A stretch of DNA of 64,000 nt from Acidimicrobiia bacterium (GCA_035464675.1 DATHSA010000066.1:1323-65322), one strand, 5' to 3'; counted from the stretch's first letter, positions 39,144-45,510 are shown. Program-made: numbers and translations. The notes: generated by a model not told the origin, from the sequence alone.

Positions 39144-39503
39144 CTAGTACCCGAGTTCGTGGAGCCGATCGTCGTCGATCCCGAGATGGTGGGCCACCTC
39201 GTGGAGAACCGTCTTGCGGATCTGCGCCTTGAGCCGCGACGGCGGGAGTCGCAGCGCCAGGTGCGGTCCCATGAAGATGGTGATGCGATCAGGCATGACG
39301 CCCGAGTAGTGCCCGGCGCGATCGTGGAGATTCACGCCGTGGTACAGCCCGAGGAGAGTGCCGCCACCGGCGTAGTCGGCGTCCTGCTCCGGGGTCGGCC
39401 AGTCCTCGACCACGACATGCAGGTTTTCCACCGCCTGGACCACCCACTCGGGCAACTCCTCGAGTGCGGCGTCGACCAGTGCCTCGAACTCGTCGCGTCT
39501 CAC
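39144..39503 (-). CDS. Minimal zincin metallopeptidase-family protein (DUF1025-like)
   Basis: HEVAHHLG (HExxH) near the C-terminus in a 119-aa protein, ending DDRLHELGY. Confidence 0.75.
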   Translation of the reverse strand: MRRDEFEALVDAALEELPEWVVQAVENLHVVVEDWPTPEQDADYAGGGTLLGLYHGVNLHDRAGHYSGVMPDRITIFMGPHLALRLPPSRLKAQIRKTVLHEVAHHLGIDDDRLHELGY

Positions 39504-39559
39504 GGTCGGGAGGATACGGGCGACCGGTTTCTGTCATACCCGGTTGGCATCGTCTACGT

Positions 39560-40690
39560 ATGGAAGTCCAACTGCTTGCCGAGGCCGCCGAACTGGTGAA
39601 TCGCGCCAACGAGCTGGTCGAGCAGGCGAATCGTGTCGAGACCGAAGGCCGATCGCCGGGTGCGATCAGGCGTGTCGTCGCCGCATACGGCCGGCTGGTC
39701 AAGCTGGGCTCCGCGGGCGGAGCGACGGCGGCCCTATTGCTCGGCGACCCGGGAACATTGGCAGGGGCCACCGGCACGTCGATGACGAAGGCGAAGGAGG
39801 CATTGAAGACCGCCGAGGCGGCTGATCAGACTCCCGAGTTGGGTGACGCCTTCCGTGCCGGCGAGCTCTCGATGGACCAGGCGACCGAGATCGCCAAGAC
39901 CGAGAAGGTGGCCCCGGGCTCGGCGGGCCCGTTGCTGAAACGGGTCAGGGGCGGTGCTCCGATCAAGGTCCTACGGGACGAGGGGCGTCGGCGCCGGCTG
40001 GAGGCGCAGTCATCCGAGGACTTGGCCGAGCGGCAGCGTGAGGCCCGCTACCTCTGGCACGGGATCACCGACGAGGGCATGTACCGCCTCGAGGGCGAGT
40101 TCGAGCCCGAGGTCGGCGCCCGGCTGGTCAACAGGCTCGAGGCCCAGGCCCGGCGCCTCGCCAAGGCGGCGCGTCACGCCGAACCGTTCCCGCGGTATCT
40201 CGCCGACGCGCTTCCCGACCTCGTCGCCGGCAAGGGCACGGGCAAGGGCAAGACCGAATTGGTCGTGCTCGTGTCTCGAGGAGTGGCGGAGCGGGGCTGG
40301 CAGGACGTGCAGGACGGCGAGTTCTGCAAGATCCCTGGTGTCGGGCCGATCGACCCGGAGGCGGCGCGTCGTATCGCGAGGAACGCGTTCCTGTCCGGCA
40401 TCTTCTTCGACGGAGAAGACCTGAGAAACATCAAGCGGTGGACCCGGCACATCCCGGCAGCGGTGAAGGTCGCGCTCAATCTCGGTGATCCCCCCGACTT
40501 CGACGGACCCCGCTGCGAAGACTGCGGGATGCGGCATGGCCTCGAGTGGGATCACGACGATCCCAAGGCCAACGGCGGAGAGACCTCGCTCGAGAACCTC
40601 GAACCCCGTTACTGGAGATGTCATCAGAAGAAGACGGCCCGCGATCGCGAGGCGGGAAGGCTGAGGCCGGCGCGCGCCAGTCCGCGCTGA
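39560..40690 (+). CDS. DUF222/HNH endonuclease-family protein (13E12-repeat-like)
   Basis: Long helical N-terminal region, C-terminal HNH-like CEDCGMRHGLEWDHDDPKANGGETSLENLEPRYWRCHQKK. ATG at 39560. Confidence 0.75.
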   Translation: MEVQLLAEAAELVNRANELVEQANRVETEGRSPGAIRRVVAAYGRLVKLGSAGGATAALLLGDPGTLAGATGTSMTKAKEALKTAEAADQTPELGDAFRAGELSMDQATEIAKTEKVAPGSAGPLLKRVRGGAPIKVLRDEGRRRRLEAQSSEDLAERQREARYLWHGITDEGMYRLEGEFEPEVGARLVNRLEAQARRLAKAARHAEPFPRYLADALPDLVAGKGTGKGKTELVVLVSRGVAERGWQDVQDGEFCKIPGVGPIDPEAARRIARNAFLSGIFFDGEDLRNIKRWTRHIPAAVKVALNLGDPPDFDGPRCEDCGMRHGLEWDHDDPKANGGETSLENLEPRYWRCHQKKTARDREAGRLRPARASPR

Positions 40691-41116: not shown

Positions 41117-41188
41117 GGGCGCTTAGCTCAGCGGGAGAGCGCTGCCTTCACACGGCAGAGGTCACTGGTTCAATCCCAGTAGCGCCCA
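41117..41188 (+). tRNA. tRNA-Val (anticodon CAC)
   Basis: Cloverleaf folded by hand: acceptor GGGCGCT/AGCGCCC, D stem GCTC/GAGC, anticodon stem CTGCC/GGCAG with loop TTCACAC, T arm ACTGG-TTCAATC-CCAGT, discriminator A. CCA is not encoded. Confidence 0.93.
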
Positions 41189-41199
41189 CAACGCCACCC

Positions 41200-44136
41200 T
41201 CAGCGGTCCCGCATCTCCTCGAGCGTCGGGCACGGGTCGATCCGGTACTCGGCGCACTCCTCGTCGGTGAAGGATCGACGCAGGCCATCCCGCACCGAGG
41301 TGACGAGATCGGCGGGATCCAAGGAGATCCCCAGCCATGCCCCATCCCACGTCCCGACGACGACCGTGTCCTCGTCGAGCCAGTGGATGTCCGAGACACC
41401 GTCGATCGGGATGCTGAGAACGACGTCACCCGTGGCGAGCTCATAGAAGGCGAGGGTCTCGAGAGCGCCCACGGCAAGGACGGTGTCGTCCGGGGAGAAG
41501 GCCATGCCCCGTACCCGGTCCTCCCGGATCCGCACGTCCGTCGCCTCCCAGGTCTCGAGGTCGATCAGCGTGATGACCGGCTCCCCGCCGACCCAAATGG
41601 CCAGGCGATCCAGGCCGTGCGACACCTCCGAGGGGGCGGACTGCTGCCTGCTCGCGTAGAGAAGTTCACCGGACCCCCGCTCGAAGGCGACGAACTCGCC
41701 GATGGTCCAACCGAGGAACCAGTCGTCACCGGTCGCCGCGACACCGAAGGCGGCACCGTAGGTCGACTCGGTCGACAGCGGTGCGCCGGTGTCGGGATCG
41801 ATCACGTGCATCTCGGCATACGGGGCCCGACTTCCCACGATCTCACCGCCGTCGATCGTCGTCCACAGGAACCACCCCTCGCTGGGATCGCCCGAGTCCA
41901 CGCAGACGCCCTGGAACTCGATGCACCCCACCAGGAAGGTCGACTCCTCGGTGCCCGGGTCGTGCAGGAACCACTCGCCCTCGCTGACCAGCAGGAACCG
42001 CCCGTCGTCGAGCATGCCCCACAGCCAACCCGGCCTGGCGCCGACCAGTTCGCCGCTCTCGGCGTCGAAGACGCGTACGAGCGGATCGTTGTCGGCAGCG
42101 CCGAAGTCGAGATTGCTGAAGGCGCCGAACTCGGAGCCGACCTCGAACGAGTTGCCATGCACCCACTCGTGGTCACCGACATCCCCGAGCACGGTCATGC
42201 CGGCGTTCCGGGCGGTCAGGTCCCAGGCCCGGATCACCCCGTCGGCATGCGCCGTGTAGAGGACGGAGCCGTCGCTCGTCATGGCCGTGCTCCTCGCCGG
42301 CCCCCCGGGGAGCCTCAATCGCTCGGTCCCCTCGAACACGCTCCACACGACGACTTCGTCCCCGGTGGTGGCGCCGATCAACAGCGTCCCGTCTGGACTG
42401 AATGACAGGCCCAGGGGCCGGAACACGAACTCCTGGGGGTCGAGGAGGTCGACCCGTCGACCCGACTCGACATCGATGAGCCTCACCGTTGGGGCATTAC
42501 GGTTCTCGACTGCGATCAGTGAGCCGTCGGGGCTGACGTCGCCGAGCCCGGTGCTCGCCTCGATCGCACTGCGCTCCGAAAAGGTCGGTGGATCGAGGAC
42601 GGCCGTGTCCTCGTCGAGGTTGAGCACGAAGAGACGGTTCGCATCGTCCATCACCGGGATCGACCCGAAGCCGGCCGGGATCACGGCGACCGACTCGAAC
42701 GAAGTCCCGTCGAGCACCTCGACCCAGCCGCCCGCCTCGACGTCGGCACGCTCGCAGGGAGGCTCGACACCACTGGACAGGAGGAAGTAGGCGCCGTCCG
42801 CCGACCAGCCCTGCGCGTCGACATTGACGCAGCCCTCGAACTCGAGCACCTCGACGACGGAGCCGTCGGATCCGTCGAGCACGACCACCCGGTTCGACAG
42901 GTCGTCGGGCTCGAGGCCCTGACGATTCGACAGGCCGGACGCCGAGTCCCGTATCCCGACGGCGACCCGTGAGGCGTCCGGATGCACCCACACGAAGGCG
43001 AAGGAATCGGCGGTCTCTTCGACGTACTCCCACAGAACCTCACCCGCGGGTGCCGCGTAGGCGATCACCCGTGTGCCCTCCTCGGAGGACACGGCGAGGA
43101 GGGATCCGTCGTCTGAGAGCGCCGCGTACACCTGGCCCTTGTGCCCGTGCTCGATCTCGAGCAGGGCCCGGTCCTCGCGCAACGCCCTCCACAGCACCTC
43201 GAGCTCCGGCCCACCGAGCCCCGCCGGCGAGCCGGCTACGTCTAAGGCGGAGAGGCCGAGGAGGGCGGCGAGCCCGGCATCCGACTCGAGTGCCAGCGCC
43301 GCCGAGGCCCACAACTCCCCCGATCGAGCCAGGACCGCCTGCGCTGACGCCTCCTGGGCGTTCTCGTCCGCGCGATCTCTTTCGACCTCGGCGATGTCGG
43401 CCTGGCGCTGTGCCTCGTCCCGCTGTGACTGAGCCTCGCTGGACTGGCCGACCGCGACGATCGCCCCGATGGTGGCCGCGACTCCGAGAAGCAGCACCAG
43501 GGCCCCGGCGGCCCACGCCGTGCGGATGGTGCGCCGGTGCTGACGCACCTCCTCGGACTCCAGCTCGTCCTTCGGGATACCCCTGATGGCGCTGGCGATG
43601 TCGGCCACGGCGCCCGAGAAGCGGGGATTGGACAGGTCGAGCTGTTCCTCGCTCCTCGCCCATCGGAGGTCCACCCATCGCGGTTCCTCGGAGAAGGCAT
43701 CGGCCAGCGCCGGAGGCACCACCGTCGCGGACGGCGAGATTCCGCCGTCCATCCAGGCGAACTCTCCGTCGGTGACCACCGGGATGATCCGGGAGGGGTC
43801 CTTGTTCTCGACCCAGTAGGCCACCTCGCGGTTAACCCACTCCGACGATGCCGCGTTCTCGGACAGCAGGAGGACGAACCAGGACGAGCCGTCCAATGCC
43901 TCGGTGATCGAGGACCAGAGATGCGGGTTCGCCGAGAGCGACGACTCGTCTCGGAAGACACGGAGCGCCCGGCGCCGCCACCATGGCTTGGCGAACCGCT
44001 GCAACCCGGATTGCAGCCGCGGCGCCAGCAGGTCGTCGGCAGCGTGGCTGTAGGAGATGAACCCGTCGAAGCTCGCCCCGTCGGAACGGCCGTGCCTGGC
44101 GTCTCGCCCCACGTTCACACGGTCCCCTCTCGCCAC
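41200..44136 (-). CDS. TIR-domain protein with one TM helix and a C-terminal beta-propeller (WD40/PD40-like) region
   Basis: N-terminal TIR pattern FDGFISYSHAADD...RVFRDESSL...WFVLLLSENAASSEWVNREVAYW. TM AWAAGALVLLLGVAATIGAIVAV preceded by RQHRRTIR. Charged coiled-coil-like segment. Repeated SxDGSxLA-type blades. The GTG start is uncertain. Confidence 0.85.
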   Translation of the reverse strand: MARGDRVNVGRDARHGRSDGASFDGFISYSHAADDLLAPRLQSGLQRFAKPWWRRRALRVFRDESSLSANPHLWSSITEALDGSSWFVLLLSENAASSEWVNREVAYWVENKDPSRIIPVVTDGEFAWMDGGISPSATVVPPALADAFSEEPRWVDLRWARSEEQLDLSNPRFSGAVADIASAIRGIPKDELESEEVRQHRRTIRTAWAAGALVLLLGVAATIGAIVAVGQSSEAQSQRDEAQRQADIAEVERDRADENAQEASAQAVLARSGELWASAALALESDAGLAALLGLSALDVAGSPAGLGGPELEVLWRALREDRALLEIEHGHKGQVYAALSDDGSLLAVSSEEGTRVIAYAAPAGEVLWEYVEETADSFAFVWVHPDASRVAVGIRDSASGLSNRQGLEPDDLSNRVVVLDGSDGSVVEVLEFEGCVNVDAQGWSADGAYFLLSSGVEPPCERADVEAGGWVEVLDGTSFESVAVIPAGFGSIPVMDDANRLFVLNLDEDTAVLDPPTFSERSAIEASTGLGDVSPDGSLIAVENRNAPTVRLIDVESGRRVDLLDPQEFVFRPLGLSFSPDGTLLIGATTGDEVVVWSVFEGTERLRLPGGPARSTAMTSDGSVLYTAHADGVIRAWDLTARNAGMTVLGDVGDHEWVHGNSFEVGSEFGAFSNLDFGAADNDPLVRVFDAESGELVGARPGWLWGMLDDGRFLLVSEGEWFLHDPGTEESTFLVGCIEFQGVCVDSGDPSEGWFLWTTIDGGEIVGSRAPYAEMHVIDPDTGAPLSTESTYGAAFGVAATGDDWFLGWTIGEFVAFERGSGELLYASRQQSAPSEVSHGLDRLAIWVGGEPVITLIDLETWEATDVRIREDRVRGMAFSPDDTVLAVGALETLAFYELATGDVVLSIPIDGVSDIHWLDEDTVVVGTWDGAWLGISLDPADLVTSVRDGLRRSFTDEECAEYRIDPCPTLEEMRDR

Positions 44137-44290
44137 GGCGAAGCCGGAAAGACACTACCCACGGGACAGGGGCCGCAGCGAGGCCGCAAGCAGTGGCGAG
44201 ATGATGAGAGGTGTTGCGAGGGCCACCAGCCCAAAGCCCAACTGCGGCAAGGTCTTGCGAGAAACATCGAGCCTCCGCGAAGTAGGCGAC

Positions 44291-44315
44291 CTGCCTTCAC
44301 ACGGCAGAGGTCACT
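44291..44315 (+). other. tRNA-Val fragment (anticodon arm plus variable region)
   Basis: ctgccttcacacggcagaggtcact is identical to 41142-41166. There is no acceptor, D or T arm. Confidence 0.9.
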
Positions 44316-44403
44316 TACCACACGCCGACGCCACCACGGCAAGCACCAGGAGGGCTCCGGAGATGCGGGCAGGTCGACTCAAGGTCCTGACAGACCACGG
44401 ACC
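44316..44403 (-). pseudogene. Truncated 5' end (leader plus signal peptide) of a lipoprotein gene paralog
   Basis: About 80 nt align by eye with few mismatches to 45190-45270, the 5' UTR and first ~22 codons of the 44451..45251 lipoprotein gene. Reads LSRPARISGALLVLAVVASACGK* and terminates inside the tRNA fragment. Confidence 0.7.
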
Positions 44404-44450
44404 CAGTAACGGATTTAACCGATGTAACGGCCCTACGGGGTGACAGTCGG

Positions 44451-45251
44451 CTACGGGAACTCGATGCCGGCGAGCAGAGTCTCAGCGGCCGGGATCAACT
44501 CGTCGAAGAACTCCTCGTTGCGAGTAGCGGCGATGATCGTGATCGTCGATCCGTCCACGTCGACGACCCAGATGCGGGCGGCGCTTTCCTGGCGCACGCC
44601 GAATGCCCACTGCCTGTCCGACGTGGCCCCCAACGAGGAGGGATTCTCGGCCTCGAGGAACATCACGCCGGAGAGCCCTTCGGCGAACCGGGAATACCCA
44701 CTCAATCCAAAGGGGATCGGCGGGTCGGCATTGGCGTCGCGTGGAGCGGCGACGTCCAGGACCACTGCGTCGAAGCCGCCGACCGCAGTGGCCGATGGCT
44801 CGGTCATGACCCTGCCGGGATCGCTGGTCGTGCCATCCGGACTCCCGGCGAAGAGGCGAACGATCTCCTCGACGACGGCTCCAATCGGGCTGTTGGGGCT
44901 CTGCACCACGATGCTGACGTCGAGATCCCAGGGGCTCTCGCCACCCTCGTGGTACTCGATGTGGACCCACAACTCCGTGGCTCCTCGGGACCACCACCAG
45001 CCCTCCTCTTCGACGGAGAACGAAACCGGCTCCCAGAACCCGCTGGCGACATAGGTCGTCCCCGGCCGAAGTTTGAGGATGCCCGTCTCCGGAATCTCGA
45101 CCTCCGTAGGCCTGCTAGTAGTCGTCATCGCAGTCGAGGTGGTCGTCGCAGGAGGCGCGGTGGTACTGGTTCCTTCGGTGTCGCCACCGCACGCCGACGC
45201 CACCAAGGCAAACACCAAGAGGGCTCCGACGATGCGGGTACGTCGACTCAC
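44451..45251 (-). CDS. Putative lipoprotein with Thr-rich linker
   Basis: Signal peptide MSRRTRIVGALLVFALVASAC-G with a lipobox, Thr/Pro-rich linker, ~200-aa domain of unknown family. GTG start at 45251. Confidence 0.7.
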   Translation of the reverse strand: MSRRTRIVGALLVFALVASACGGDTEGTSTTAPPATTTSTAMTTTSRPTEVEIPETGILKLRPGTTYVASGFWEPVSFSVEEEGWWWSRGATELWVHIEYHEGGESPWDLDVSIVVQSPNSPIGAVVEEIVRLFAGSPDGTTSDPGRVMTEPSATAVGGFDAVVLDVAAPRDANADPPIPFGLSGYSRFAEGLSGVMFLEAENPSSLGATSDRQWAFGVRQESAARIWVVDVDGSTITIIAATRNEEFFDELIPAAETLLAGIEFP

Positions 45252-45302
45252 GGTTCCGTCAGACTACGGAAGGGCAAGGATTCGCACCGCACCGTGACCG
45301 CT

Positions 45303-45390
45303 ACGCGCACAGAACGCGCACAAGACGCGCACAAGACGCGCACAGAACAACCGGAACTCACTCACCCTCACTCGATCTCACTCACACTCG
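45303..45390. repeat. 4 x 11-nt (ACGCGCACARR) then 3 x 10-nt (CTCACTCNNN) tandem repeats
   Basis: Read directly: 45303-45346 and 45357-45390. They lie 52-140 nt upstream of the lipoprotein gene start. Confidence 0.9.
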
Positions 45391-45462
45391 AAACGTGTTG
45401 TGGGGTATAGGGATCCGGGGCGAAGTGGCGTCTGACCTGGGGTTTCGCGATTGGGCCTGATA

Positions 45463-45510
45463 TGCCTTCGCACGGCAGAGGTCACTGGTTCGATCCCAGT
45501 AGCGCCCACA
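45463..45510 (+). other. tRNA-Val 3'-half remnant (att-like direct repeat)
   Basis: tgccttcGcacggcagaggtcactggttcGatcccagtagcgcccaca matches 41143-41190 with 2 mismatches. No matching 5' acceptor strand or D arm lies upstream. Confidence 0.85.

Follow-up and report, generated by a model that had tools for sequence, protein, structure and literature searches.

A single-pass TIR protein with predicted extracytoplasmic propellers belongs to a large family of putative bacterial TIR sensors

The locus considered here raises the question of what a TIR domain does when it is joined, in one polypeptide, to a membrane helix and a large beta-propeller region, and whether such a protein works alone. The gene lies in a 64,000-nucleotide stretch of DNA from an Acidimicrobiia bacterium (GCA_035464675.1 DATHSA010000066.1:1323-65322; hereafter the window, from whose first letter coordinates are counted), and encodes a 978-residue protein on the minus strand at 41200-44136. 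An earlier interpretation, hereafter the sequence-only reading, proposed a one-protein surface sensor coupled to NAD+ depletion, possibly acting against phage and sitting alone in a tRNA-flanked islet. The analysis presented here identifies the protein as a member of a large, unstudied family of receptor-like bacterial TIR proteins. We favour, with a confidence only a little better than even, a reading in which it is a single-pass TIR receptor with its propellers outside the cell, from a family organized in arrays with an adjoining regulator, in which ligand-driven clustering would lead to NAD+ cleavage and the neighbouring gene product would read the outcome.

Domain architecture, catalytic position and predicted topology

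The open reading frame (ORF) begins with GTG, ends with the stop codon at 41200-41202 and has GC contents of 0.88 at third and 0.49 at second codon positions. Such a third-position value in surrounding DNA of 68% GC indicates that the ORF is a real gene, which is defined by the ORF list, its translation, this codon bias and the ratio of nonsynonymous to synonymous substitution (dN/dS) discussed below; overall GC content is unchanged over the gene. The order of TIR domain, one membrane helix and propeller proposed by the sequence-only reading is borne out by Pfam, hydropathy, structure prediction with AlphaFold2 (AF2) and Foldseek. Three Pfam models, TIR_2 (residues 26-125; 40.3 bits, cut-off 28; E 5e-10), ThsB_TIR (28.7 bits, cut-off 21.2) and WD40 (37.3 bits, cut-off 27), exceed their curated cut-offs, as does ANAPC4_WD40, and residues 320-950 match many propeller families; an NCBIfam scan added nothing specific. 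The motifs by which the layout had been recognized are all in place, namely FDGFISYSH (residues 23-31), ALRVFRDESSL (57-67) and WFVLLLSENAASSEWVNREVAYW (86-108) in the TIR domain, RQHRRTIR (198-205) before the hydrophobic helix (207-229), together with six blade motifs, at 341-351, 445-455, 535-545, 580-590, 632-639 and 881-891.

An AF2 model built from 30 family sequences (mean predicted local distance difference test score, pLDDT, 85.6) contains a TIR-type alpha/beta unit at residues 26-190, a helix spanning the membrane segment, a long helix at 235-282, shorter helices at 287-301 and 309-321, and 55 strands at 324-938 that form 14 four-stranded blades, mostly with pLDDT >90, followed by a small helical tail at 941-977. 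Compared with the PDB by Foldseek, the model matches tandem 7+7 WD40 propellers (E 1e-27 to 1e-22), including 2ymu, Aip1 (1nr0), Utp21 and Apaf-1. On the minus strand the gene can therefore be divided into a part for the cytoplasmic TIR domain and juxtamembrane segment, which ends in the basic RQHRRTIR (residues 23-206; 43519-44070; Pfam TIR_2/ThsB_TIR and PDB matches), the single membrane helix (residues 207-229, AWAAGALVLLLGVAATIGAIVAV; 43450-43518; hydropathy), a predicted extracytoplasmic stalk comprising an A/E/Q/R-rich helix at ~235-282 and a conserved helical linker at 287-321 (43171-43449; AF2), two seven-bladed WD40-type beta-propellers (residues 323-940; 41317-43170; Pfam, AF2 and Foldseek) and a conserved C-terminal helical tail (residues 941-978; 41203-41316; alignment and AF2). 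The stalk varies in length, with numerous indels among homologs. The tail carries the motif R-x-F-T-x-x-E-C-x-x-Y-R-I-D-P-C-P, which includes the Cys pair C961/C969 and in which R954, E960, C961 and C969 are invariant.

The sequence-only reading had offered E99 or E104 as the catalytic Glu. When the window protein was aligned with 29 homologs, ~40-45% identical overall, E104 (codon 43825-43827, minus strand, in the motif S98-E-W100-V-N-R-E104) and W100 were invariant in all 30 sequences, whereas position 99 was S, P, L or V in others. A phmmer comparison with PDB sequences placed SSEWVNREV on DSKWCLMEL of flax L6 (3ozi) and ASSWCLDEL of AtTIR (3jrn), so that E104 falls on the Glu of 'CLMEL' and 'CLDEL', which in L6 and other TIR NADases we take to be the catalytic residue. 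Thus E104 stands as the candidate and E99 does not and, judged by alignment, the TIR domain keeps a Glu at the catalytic position. The PDB sequences matched by the domain are the plant TIR domains L6, AtTIR, RUN1 and RPP1 together with the TIR adaptor TICAM-2; L6, RUN1 and RPP1 are enzymatically active, and TICAM-2 is a scaffold adaptor. Among PADLOC models the ThsB set matches the 978-residue protein weakly (E 0.016-0.02), the best match being PDC-S66 (E 1e-4). Among TIR domains, the enzymatic ones of ThsB type and plant type come nearest to that of the window protein. NAD+ depletion and an anti-phage function of the protein are hypothetical.

The placement of the TIR domain in the cytoplasm and the propellers outside, as the sequence-only reading had it, is a prediction that gains support from charge bias and the distribution of Cys residues. 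The sole segment with a 19-residue Kyte-Doolittle mean >1.6 is that at residues 207-229 (mean 2.53), and a hydrophobic segment lies ~200 residues past the start in all sufficiently long family ORFs except that of locus L081. The conserved RQHRRT(I/V)R forms its N-terminal flank. Across 82 family proteins the Lys plus Arg count averages 4.1 in the N-terminal flank of the helix versus 2.3 in the C-terminal flank, the former being the richer in 68 of the 82 and the poorer in two. The window protein has no Cys in its cytoplasmic part and six in its C-terminal part (436, 461, 738, 745, 961 and 969), which are conserved and closely spaced as three pairs, C436/C461 and C738/C745 in the propellers and C961/C969 in the tail. 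In the family as a whole the mean number of Cys residues is 0.4 before the helix versus 4.9 after it, and 78/82 proteins have an even number in the part after the helix, as would fit disulfide pairs in an exported domain. Because of the charge bias, the Cys-free cytoplasmic part and the even C-terminal Cys counts, a TIR domain inside and propellers outside are predicted. The 978-residue protein has no N-terminal signal peptide.

A family with a constant TIR module, its arrays and an adjoining regulator

A word-indexed search returned 1,461 relatives, most of them 940-1,020 residues long with the same domains, mostly from Acidimicrobiia and named only 'TIR domain-containing protein' or 'WD40 repeat protein'. 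Exhaustive HMMER searching with the TIR and membrane-helix module yielded 3,061 representative clusters (50% identity) at E <= 1e-30, a lower bound for the size of the family. A scan of one genome per species gave 153 relatives, with full-length matches nearly all in Acidimicrobiia metagenome-assembled genomes (MAGs). The module was also found at 47-63% identity in Solirubrobacterales, Thermoleophilia, Amycolatopsis, Saccharopolyspora, Chitinophagaceae and Poritiphilus, and in Burkholderiales and alphaproteobacterial MAGs. The family is mainly one of Acidimicrobiia, extending to other Actinomycetota, Bacteroidota and Proteobacteria. What follows the helix is less uniform, as Pfam finds WD40-type propeller repeats in seven of nine distant members, TPR in one and no match in the remaining one. 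Mean pairwise identity among 30 members is 0.80 for the TIR and juxtamembrane region, 0.48 for the helix and stalk and 0.32 for the propellers. The family thus combines a near-constant TIR module with a highly variable ectodomain, which is the pattern of recognition-receptor repertoires. No relatives were matched in phage records or viral contigs.

Two sets of family loci deserve separate mention. The conjugative megaplasmid pCMU01 of the cultured strain Methylorubrum extorquens CM4 (L086; record 306752-312718) carries a tandem pair, WP_041929394.1 and WP_012606285.1, with AAA ATPase, 3'-5' exonuclease and metallophosphoesterase genes nearby; the strain is tractable for experiments. Four loci of the MAG CAXMPS01, labelled 'uncultured Gammaproteobacteria' (L008, L023, L024 and L025), have TIR modules 76-80% identical to the Acidimicrobiia type, and probably reflect mis-binning or recent transfer.

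In Acidimicrobiia the genes are, as a norm, arranged in head-to-tail arrays of 2-5 paralogs behind a SARP-type regulator. Locus L001, on a 1.4-Mb contig, has five head-to-tail paralogs whose stop and start codons touch or overlap, L003 has four, and L002 and L004 have four or five. L082 holds at least three, including P0002, the closest non-identical relative of the window protein (67% identity), and nine loci with at least ten copies occur in the MAG CAZCBO01. Members of one array share 0.74-0.95 identity in their TIR modules and 0.30-0.48 in their ectodomains. Most of the genes listed around the arrays of L001-L004 are ordinary ones for metabolism, transport and regulation.

The regulator, of ~950 residues and directly upstream of the arrays (L003 7002-9857; also L002, L004, L007, L012-L015, L027, L038 and L044), contains Trans_reg_C (a winged helix), BTAD, cNMP_binding and TPR-S domains, beyond which ~470 residues have no Pfam match. 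Its last 180 residues resemble class III nucleotide cyclases (PDB 3mr7, E 6e-4; Pfam Guanylate_cyc, E 1e-3; Foldseek, E 2e-7). Between TPR-S and this cyclase-like end lies a six-stranded Rossmann-like domain, here termed X (model pLDDT 89.7), with the invariant motifs H-x-x-G-H, G-x-G-S-L-A-x-G-x-D and W-D..G-T. PADLOC applied to the whole regulator gave no identity for domain X, nor did Foldseek, whose list for the regulator model was filled by the cyclase domain, and a profile search of the protein database with domain X recovered only unannotated short proteins. A likeness of the motifs G-x-G-S-L-A-x-G-A-D and W-D-G..A-G-T to SLOG, LOG or DprA domains, with one Pfam DprA match at E 0.14, could not be established and is not claimed. 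Domain X looks like an undescribed domain family. Standalone X proteins of ~185 residues, with no Pfam annotation, also exist (P0371-P0469; L088/L089 7001-7567), some of them in ordinary metabolic neighbourhoods. At L087 (1620-7714), WD40 fragments, a Crp-type regulator that binds cyclic nucleotide monophosphates (cNMP), and individual genes for TPR-S and for X together look like a split, fragmented or frameshifted version of the TIR-array system.

How regularly does the regulator accompany the TIR genes? It is adjacent in 6/6 Acidimicrobiia-type loci whose flanks extend for 3 kb or more on each side, and also in L002-L004. Its C-terminal module (TPR-S, X and cyclase; 38-45% identity) adjoins distant genes for TIR and membrane-helix proteins in 5/28 loci (L050, L053, L056, L057 and L070), in varied orientation, and is present in 3/19 of the distant loci for which both flanks are available; the association extends across phyla. 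The proposal of a one-protein sensor is therefore only partly supported. Indeed, the arrays and their regulator, together with the recurrence of the module across phyla, point to signalling via a partner rather than to a self-contained suicide switch.

Comparison with an ortholog on a 96% identical metagenome contig (L083) indicates that the window gene is maintained and suggests a mosaic history. The dN/dS ratio between the two is 0.23 overall, 0.13 in the TIR region and 0.36 in the propellers, the overall value denoting purifying selection. However, dS is 0.29 in the TIR region versus 0.04-0.05 in the rest, a sixfold excess, and differences counted per 100 bases amount to 5-16% at 43600-44299, the TIR-coding part and leader, as against 0-5% elsewhere. 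With both values raised in the 5' 700 bases, replacement of the TIR module from a paralog by gene conversion in one lineage is the simplest interpretation. Such an exchange, which fits the higher similarity of TIR modules within arrays, would mean that the organism has, or had, other copies.

The tRNA-Val islet of the window gene

In the window itself the gene is an orphan. There is no second TIR copy in the 64 kb, and tblastn with the L003 regulator finds no relative of that regulator there (E 1e-2). The description of the gene as alone, and with no ThsA-like, STAND NTPase or cyclase gene, thus holds for the window, where none of these was found and the single copy stands without a partner; as a description of the family norm it fails, given the arrays. 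The expression 'tRNA-flanked islet' needs a similar amendment. A tRNA-Val gene (CAC) at 41117-41189 on the plus strand (ARAGORN; Rfam tRNA, 68 bits) forms the left border, 10 bases from the stop codon of the TIR gene. The right border of this 3.1-kb islet, 155 bases upstream of the TIR start codon, is a 25-nucleotide exact direct copy of the tRNA-Val anticodon arm (44291-44315, plus strand; blastn-short E 6e-9). Further out, at 45463-45510 on the plus strand, lies another direct copy, 48 nucleotides long and 96% identical, which covers the tRNA from the anticodon arm to the 3' end (its 3' part; blastn-short E 6e-18) and is the outer border of a second islet. The locus is thus tRNA-linked, and what stands at the other side is a fragment and not a second tRNA gene. 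A second intact tRNA was sought with ARAGORN and Rfam, which find one only, and the fragments were detected by short-word blastn. In L083 the first copy is 48 nucleotides long, and ARAGORN calls an odd second tRNA-Val there.

The two partial copies split the region into two small islets, one with the TIR gene and one with a lipoprotein gene. Direct repeats of the 3' half of a tRNA are the usual scars of site-specific integration, and here direct repeats of the 3' part (25 nucleotides at 100% and 48 at 96%) do lie at the far ends. No integrase is evident at 41190-45510, where the TIR and lipoprotein genes are the only long coding-like ORFs, and an exact junction-pattern scan of metagenome contigs found no empty integration site. 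Nor is tRNA adjacency a family trait, as 6/60 loci have a tRNA within their flanks (<=10 kb each side) and in none does it flank the gene directly. The lipoprotein gene between the two fragments (44451-45251, minus strand) encodes 266 residues with a signal peptide and the lipobox LVASAC, and matches no significant Pfam or PADLOC family. Its ortholog adjoins the TIR gene in L083. As a conserved partner the lipoprotein was ruled out, since it was seen only in L083 and, weakly, in L027.

Several smaller features belong to the same region. A short ORF on the minus strand at 44311-44382, LSRPARISGALLVLAVVASACGK, encodes a lipoprotein signal peptide with a lipobox, like the start of the 266-residue lipoprotein, and a stop codon truncates it precisely at the junction with the tRNA fragment; because the stretch is missing from the 96% identical L083, it is probably a rearrangement remnant. 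Short tandem repeats (45290-45400), with units like CGCGCACA(A/G)(A/G)A and then of ACTCAC type, lie in the spacer that separates the lipoprotein gene from the second tRNA fragment. Within ~8 kb the neighbours encode a patatin, a molybdopterin oxidoreductase, DUF4332, DUF222/HNH and YjbR proteins, the lipoprotein, a CWB2 protein, an amine oxidase and a cyclopropane-fatty-acid synthase (CMAS), and PADLOC gave no defence match for the eight of these to which it was applied, nor anything relevant in a set of ten proteins from around the gene. A DUF222/HNH endonuclease gene is found near TIR genes in the window (39464-40690, plus strand), L003 (1-426) and L004 (20836-21900); the proteins of the window and the two unrelated array loci are not closely similar (no tblastn match at 1e-5).

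Possible functions and relation to known systems

In the receptor reading that we favour, a surface ligand would bind the propellers and bring receptors together, after which the TIR domains would come together on the cytoplasmic side of the membrane and act on NAD+. The last step is modelled on SARM1, plant TNLs and bacterial TIRs, in which TIR catalysis is known to need self-association. The product, or the drop in NAD+, would be read out, in array loci likely by the adjoining regulator. It should be emphasized, however, that several points weigh against this scheme. The topology is a prediction, and enzymatic, ligand and phenotype data for family members are absent from the searched literature. 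The window lacks a partner gene for its TIR copy, and the same holds for 16/19 distant loci with both flanks; as standalone genes for the partner and for domain X also occur away from TIR genes (P0220 and P0409), the link is not obligate. Domain X, moreover, has no PDB sequence match and in Pfam only the weak match to DprA, and the regulator may merely control transcription of the array without reading the TIR product.

It could be argued that the protein is instead a self-contained anti-phage sensor, whose propellers detect phage or a phage-caused change at the surface and whose TIR domain depletes NAD+ to bring about abortive infection with no partner. The conserved catalytic Glu, the ThsB_TIR score above its cut-off, the lone gene in a tRNA-linked islet and the large lineage-specific expansion with variable sensor domains are consistent with this possibility, as is the Methylorubrum plasmid pair with its ATPase, exonuclease and metallophosphoesterase neighbours. 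PADLOC, however, detects no defence genes around the window gene, and its ThsB and TIR-NLR models match at E 0.007-0.02 only. Furthermore, the neighbours of the L001-L004 arrays are mostly ordinary, a conserved regulator stands beside most relatives, relatives are absent from the phage records and viral contigs searched, and a survey of TIR-based defence with 29 predicted types mentions no WD40 or propeller (10.64898/2025.12.03.692087). The defence context envisaged by the sequence-only reading thus did not materialize. The abortive-infection model for the orphan copy is weakened by the partner, the non-defence contexts and the absence from phage and viral collections, and we consider it unlikely.

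A somewhat less probable explanation is that, as in animal Toll-like receptors, the TIR domain serves for assembly or as an adaptor and is not an enzyme; it would recruit a cytoplasmic partner through protein-protein contact, with no NAD+ chemistry involved. The whole TIR surface and juxtamembrane segment are near-invariant, at the 0.80 identity given above, far beyond catalytic need, TIR modules resemble one another more closely in an array than across genomes, as if fitting each other or a shared partner, and the adjoining regulator has TPR repeats, which usually bind proteins. Invariance of the Glu and Trp of W-x-x-x-E over 30 sequences that are 40-45% identical is, however, hard to explain without catalysis, and the nearest PDB relatives include the active plant TIRs L6, RUN1 and RPP1, alongside the adaptor TICAM-2. 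Finally, the window copy could be an evolutionary leftover that was brought into the tRNA-Val islet and, separated from its array and regulator, now has no role. That it is a single copy without the regulator, that one tRNA repeat is degraded and that a truncated lipoprotein signal sequence adjoins it would suit such a history, but the 978-codon frame is intact, dN/dS against the ortholog from a second sample is 0.23 and every invariant family residue is kept, which makes this the least credible explanation, and a very improbable one.

The receptor reading can be taken a step further, if only tentatively, since we hold the extension to be improbable as a whole. The family may form a bacterial pathway resembling that of Toll-like receptors, with a germline repertoire of membrane TIR receptors whose diversified propellers sense surface cues, transfer of the signal across the membrane through TIR clustering, an NAD+-derived messenger, the TPR-S/X/cyclase module as its reader and, as the output, a change in transcription and not suicide; the window gene would then be a mobile spare receptor. 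If this were true, in Acidimicrobiia the reader of the messenger would be the part fused to the cNMP-binding SARP transcription factor. The conserved neighbour provides a testable two-component hypothesis, in which the TPR-S/X/cyclase protein reads the TIR product, and the window gene offers a convenient minimal case, a single intact receptor without its partner.

Currently no bacterial protein with a TIR domain, membrane helix and propeller is described in the openly accessible literature searched, which included broad surveys of conflict systems in bacteria, a classification of TIR domains and a survey from 2025 in which 29 Thoeris types are predicted. Thoeris is nevertheless an obvious comparator. 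Its ThsB shares with the window protein a TIR domain with the catalytic Glu position, and the window protein matches Pfam ThsB_TIR above the cut-off; moreover, Thoeris loci with several thsB genes resemble the relatives of the window gene, which are tandem TIR paralogs beside one non-TIR partner. Thoeris 'type III', for example, combines several TIR proteins with an SLOG effector (10.64898/2025.12.03.692087). In contrast with cytoplasmic ThsB, the window protein has a membrane helix and ~750 residues predicted to be extracytoplasmic, and the partner in the arrays is a DNA-binding regulator with a cyclase-like domain, in loci that are not defence islands. As no ThsA-type effector (SIR2-SLOG or Macro-TM) is present in the window or related loci, the window gene is not a Thoeris system as defined.

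The TIR-STAND-WD40/TPR proteins of actinobacteria and cyanobacteria (PMC7159879, PMC8195603) are similar in their N-terminal TIR domain, C-terminal WD40 repeats and lineage-specific expansion. They differ in having an NTPase (NB-ARC/NACHT) where the window protein has its membrane helix, and the WD40 repeats of the latter are predicted to lie outside. Pfam and NCBIfam find no STAND NTPase in the 978-residue protein, in which residues 207-322 are the membrane helix and further helices, so that it is not a TIR-STAND protein; the arrangement of TIR domain, membrane helix and WD40 is not described in either of these two papers. The overall layout is that of the PknD-type receptor Ser/Thr kinases of the same phylum, which likewise place an N-terminal cytoplasmic signalling domain, one helix and an extracytoplasmic propeller in a single chain. 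PknD of M. tuberculosis consists of a kinase, a membrane helix and a six-bladed NHL propeller, and thus differs from the window protein in having a kinase in place of the TIR domain and one NHL propeller in place of two seven-bladed WD40 propellers.

Animal Toll-like and IL-1 receptors provide a further comparison. They too combine a repeat ectodomain, one membrane helix and a TIR domain in the cytoplasm, they make up a repertoire in which paralogs keep the TIR and vary in the ectodomain, and they are activated by ligand-induced association. The polarity, however, is opposite, as the TIR domain of the window protein is N-terminal and there is no signal peptide; the protein does not have the type I orientation of Toll-like receptors. 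It also has WD40 propellers instead of leucine-rich repeat or immunoglobulin domains, no leucine-rich repeat being matched in the 978 residues, and its TIR domain keeps the catalytic Glu. There is no homology to Toll-like receptors beyond the TIR domain, and common descent of the whole protein is not implied. The bacterial TIR systems characterized in the searched literature sense intracellular events. The coupling of a TIR enzyme to a large extracytoplasmic sensor would, if true, represent an outside-in route of TIR signalling in bacteria and a clear functional parallel to animal Toll-like receptors; by analogy, the window protein may work like a Toll-like receptor turned around.

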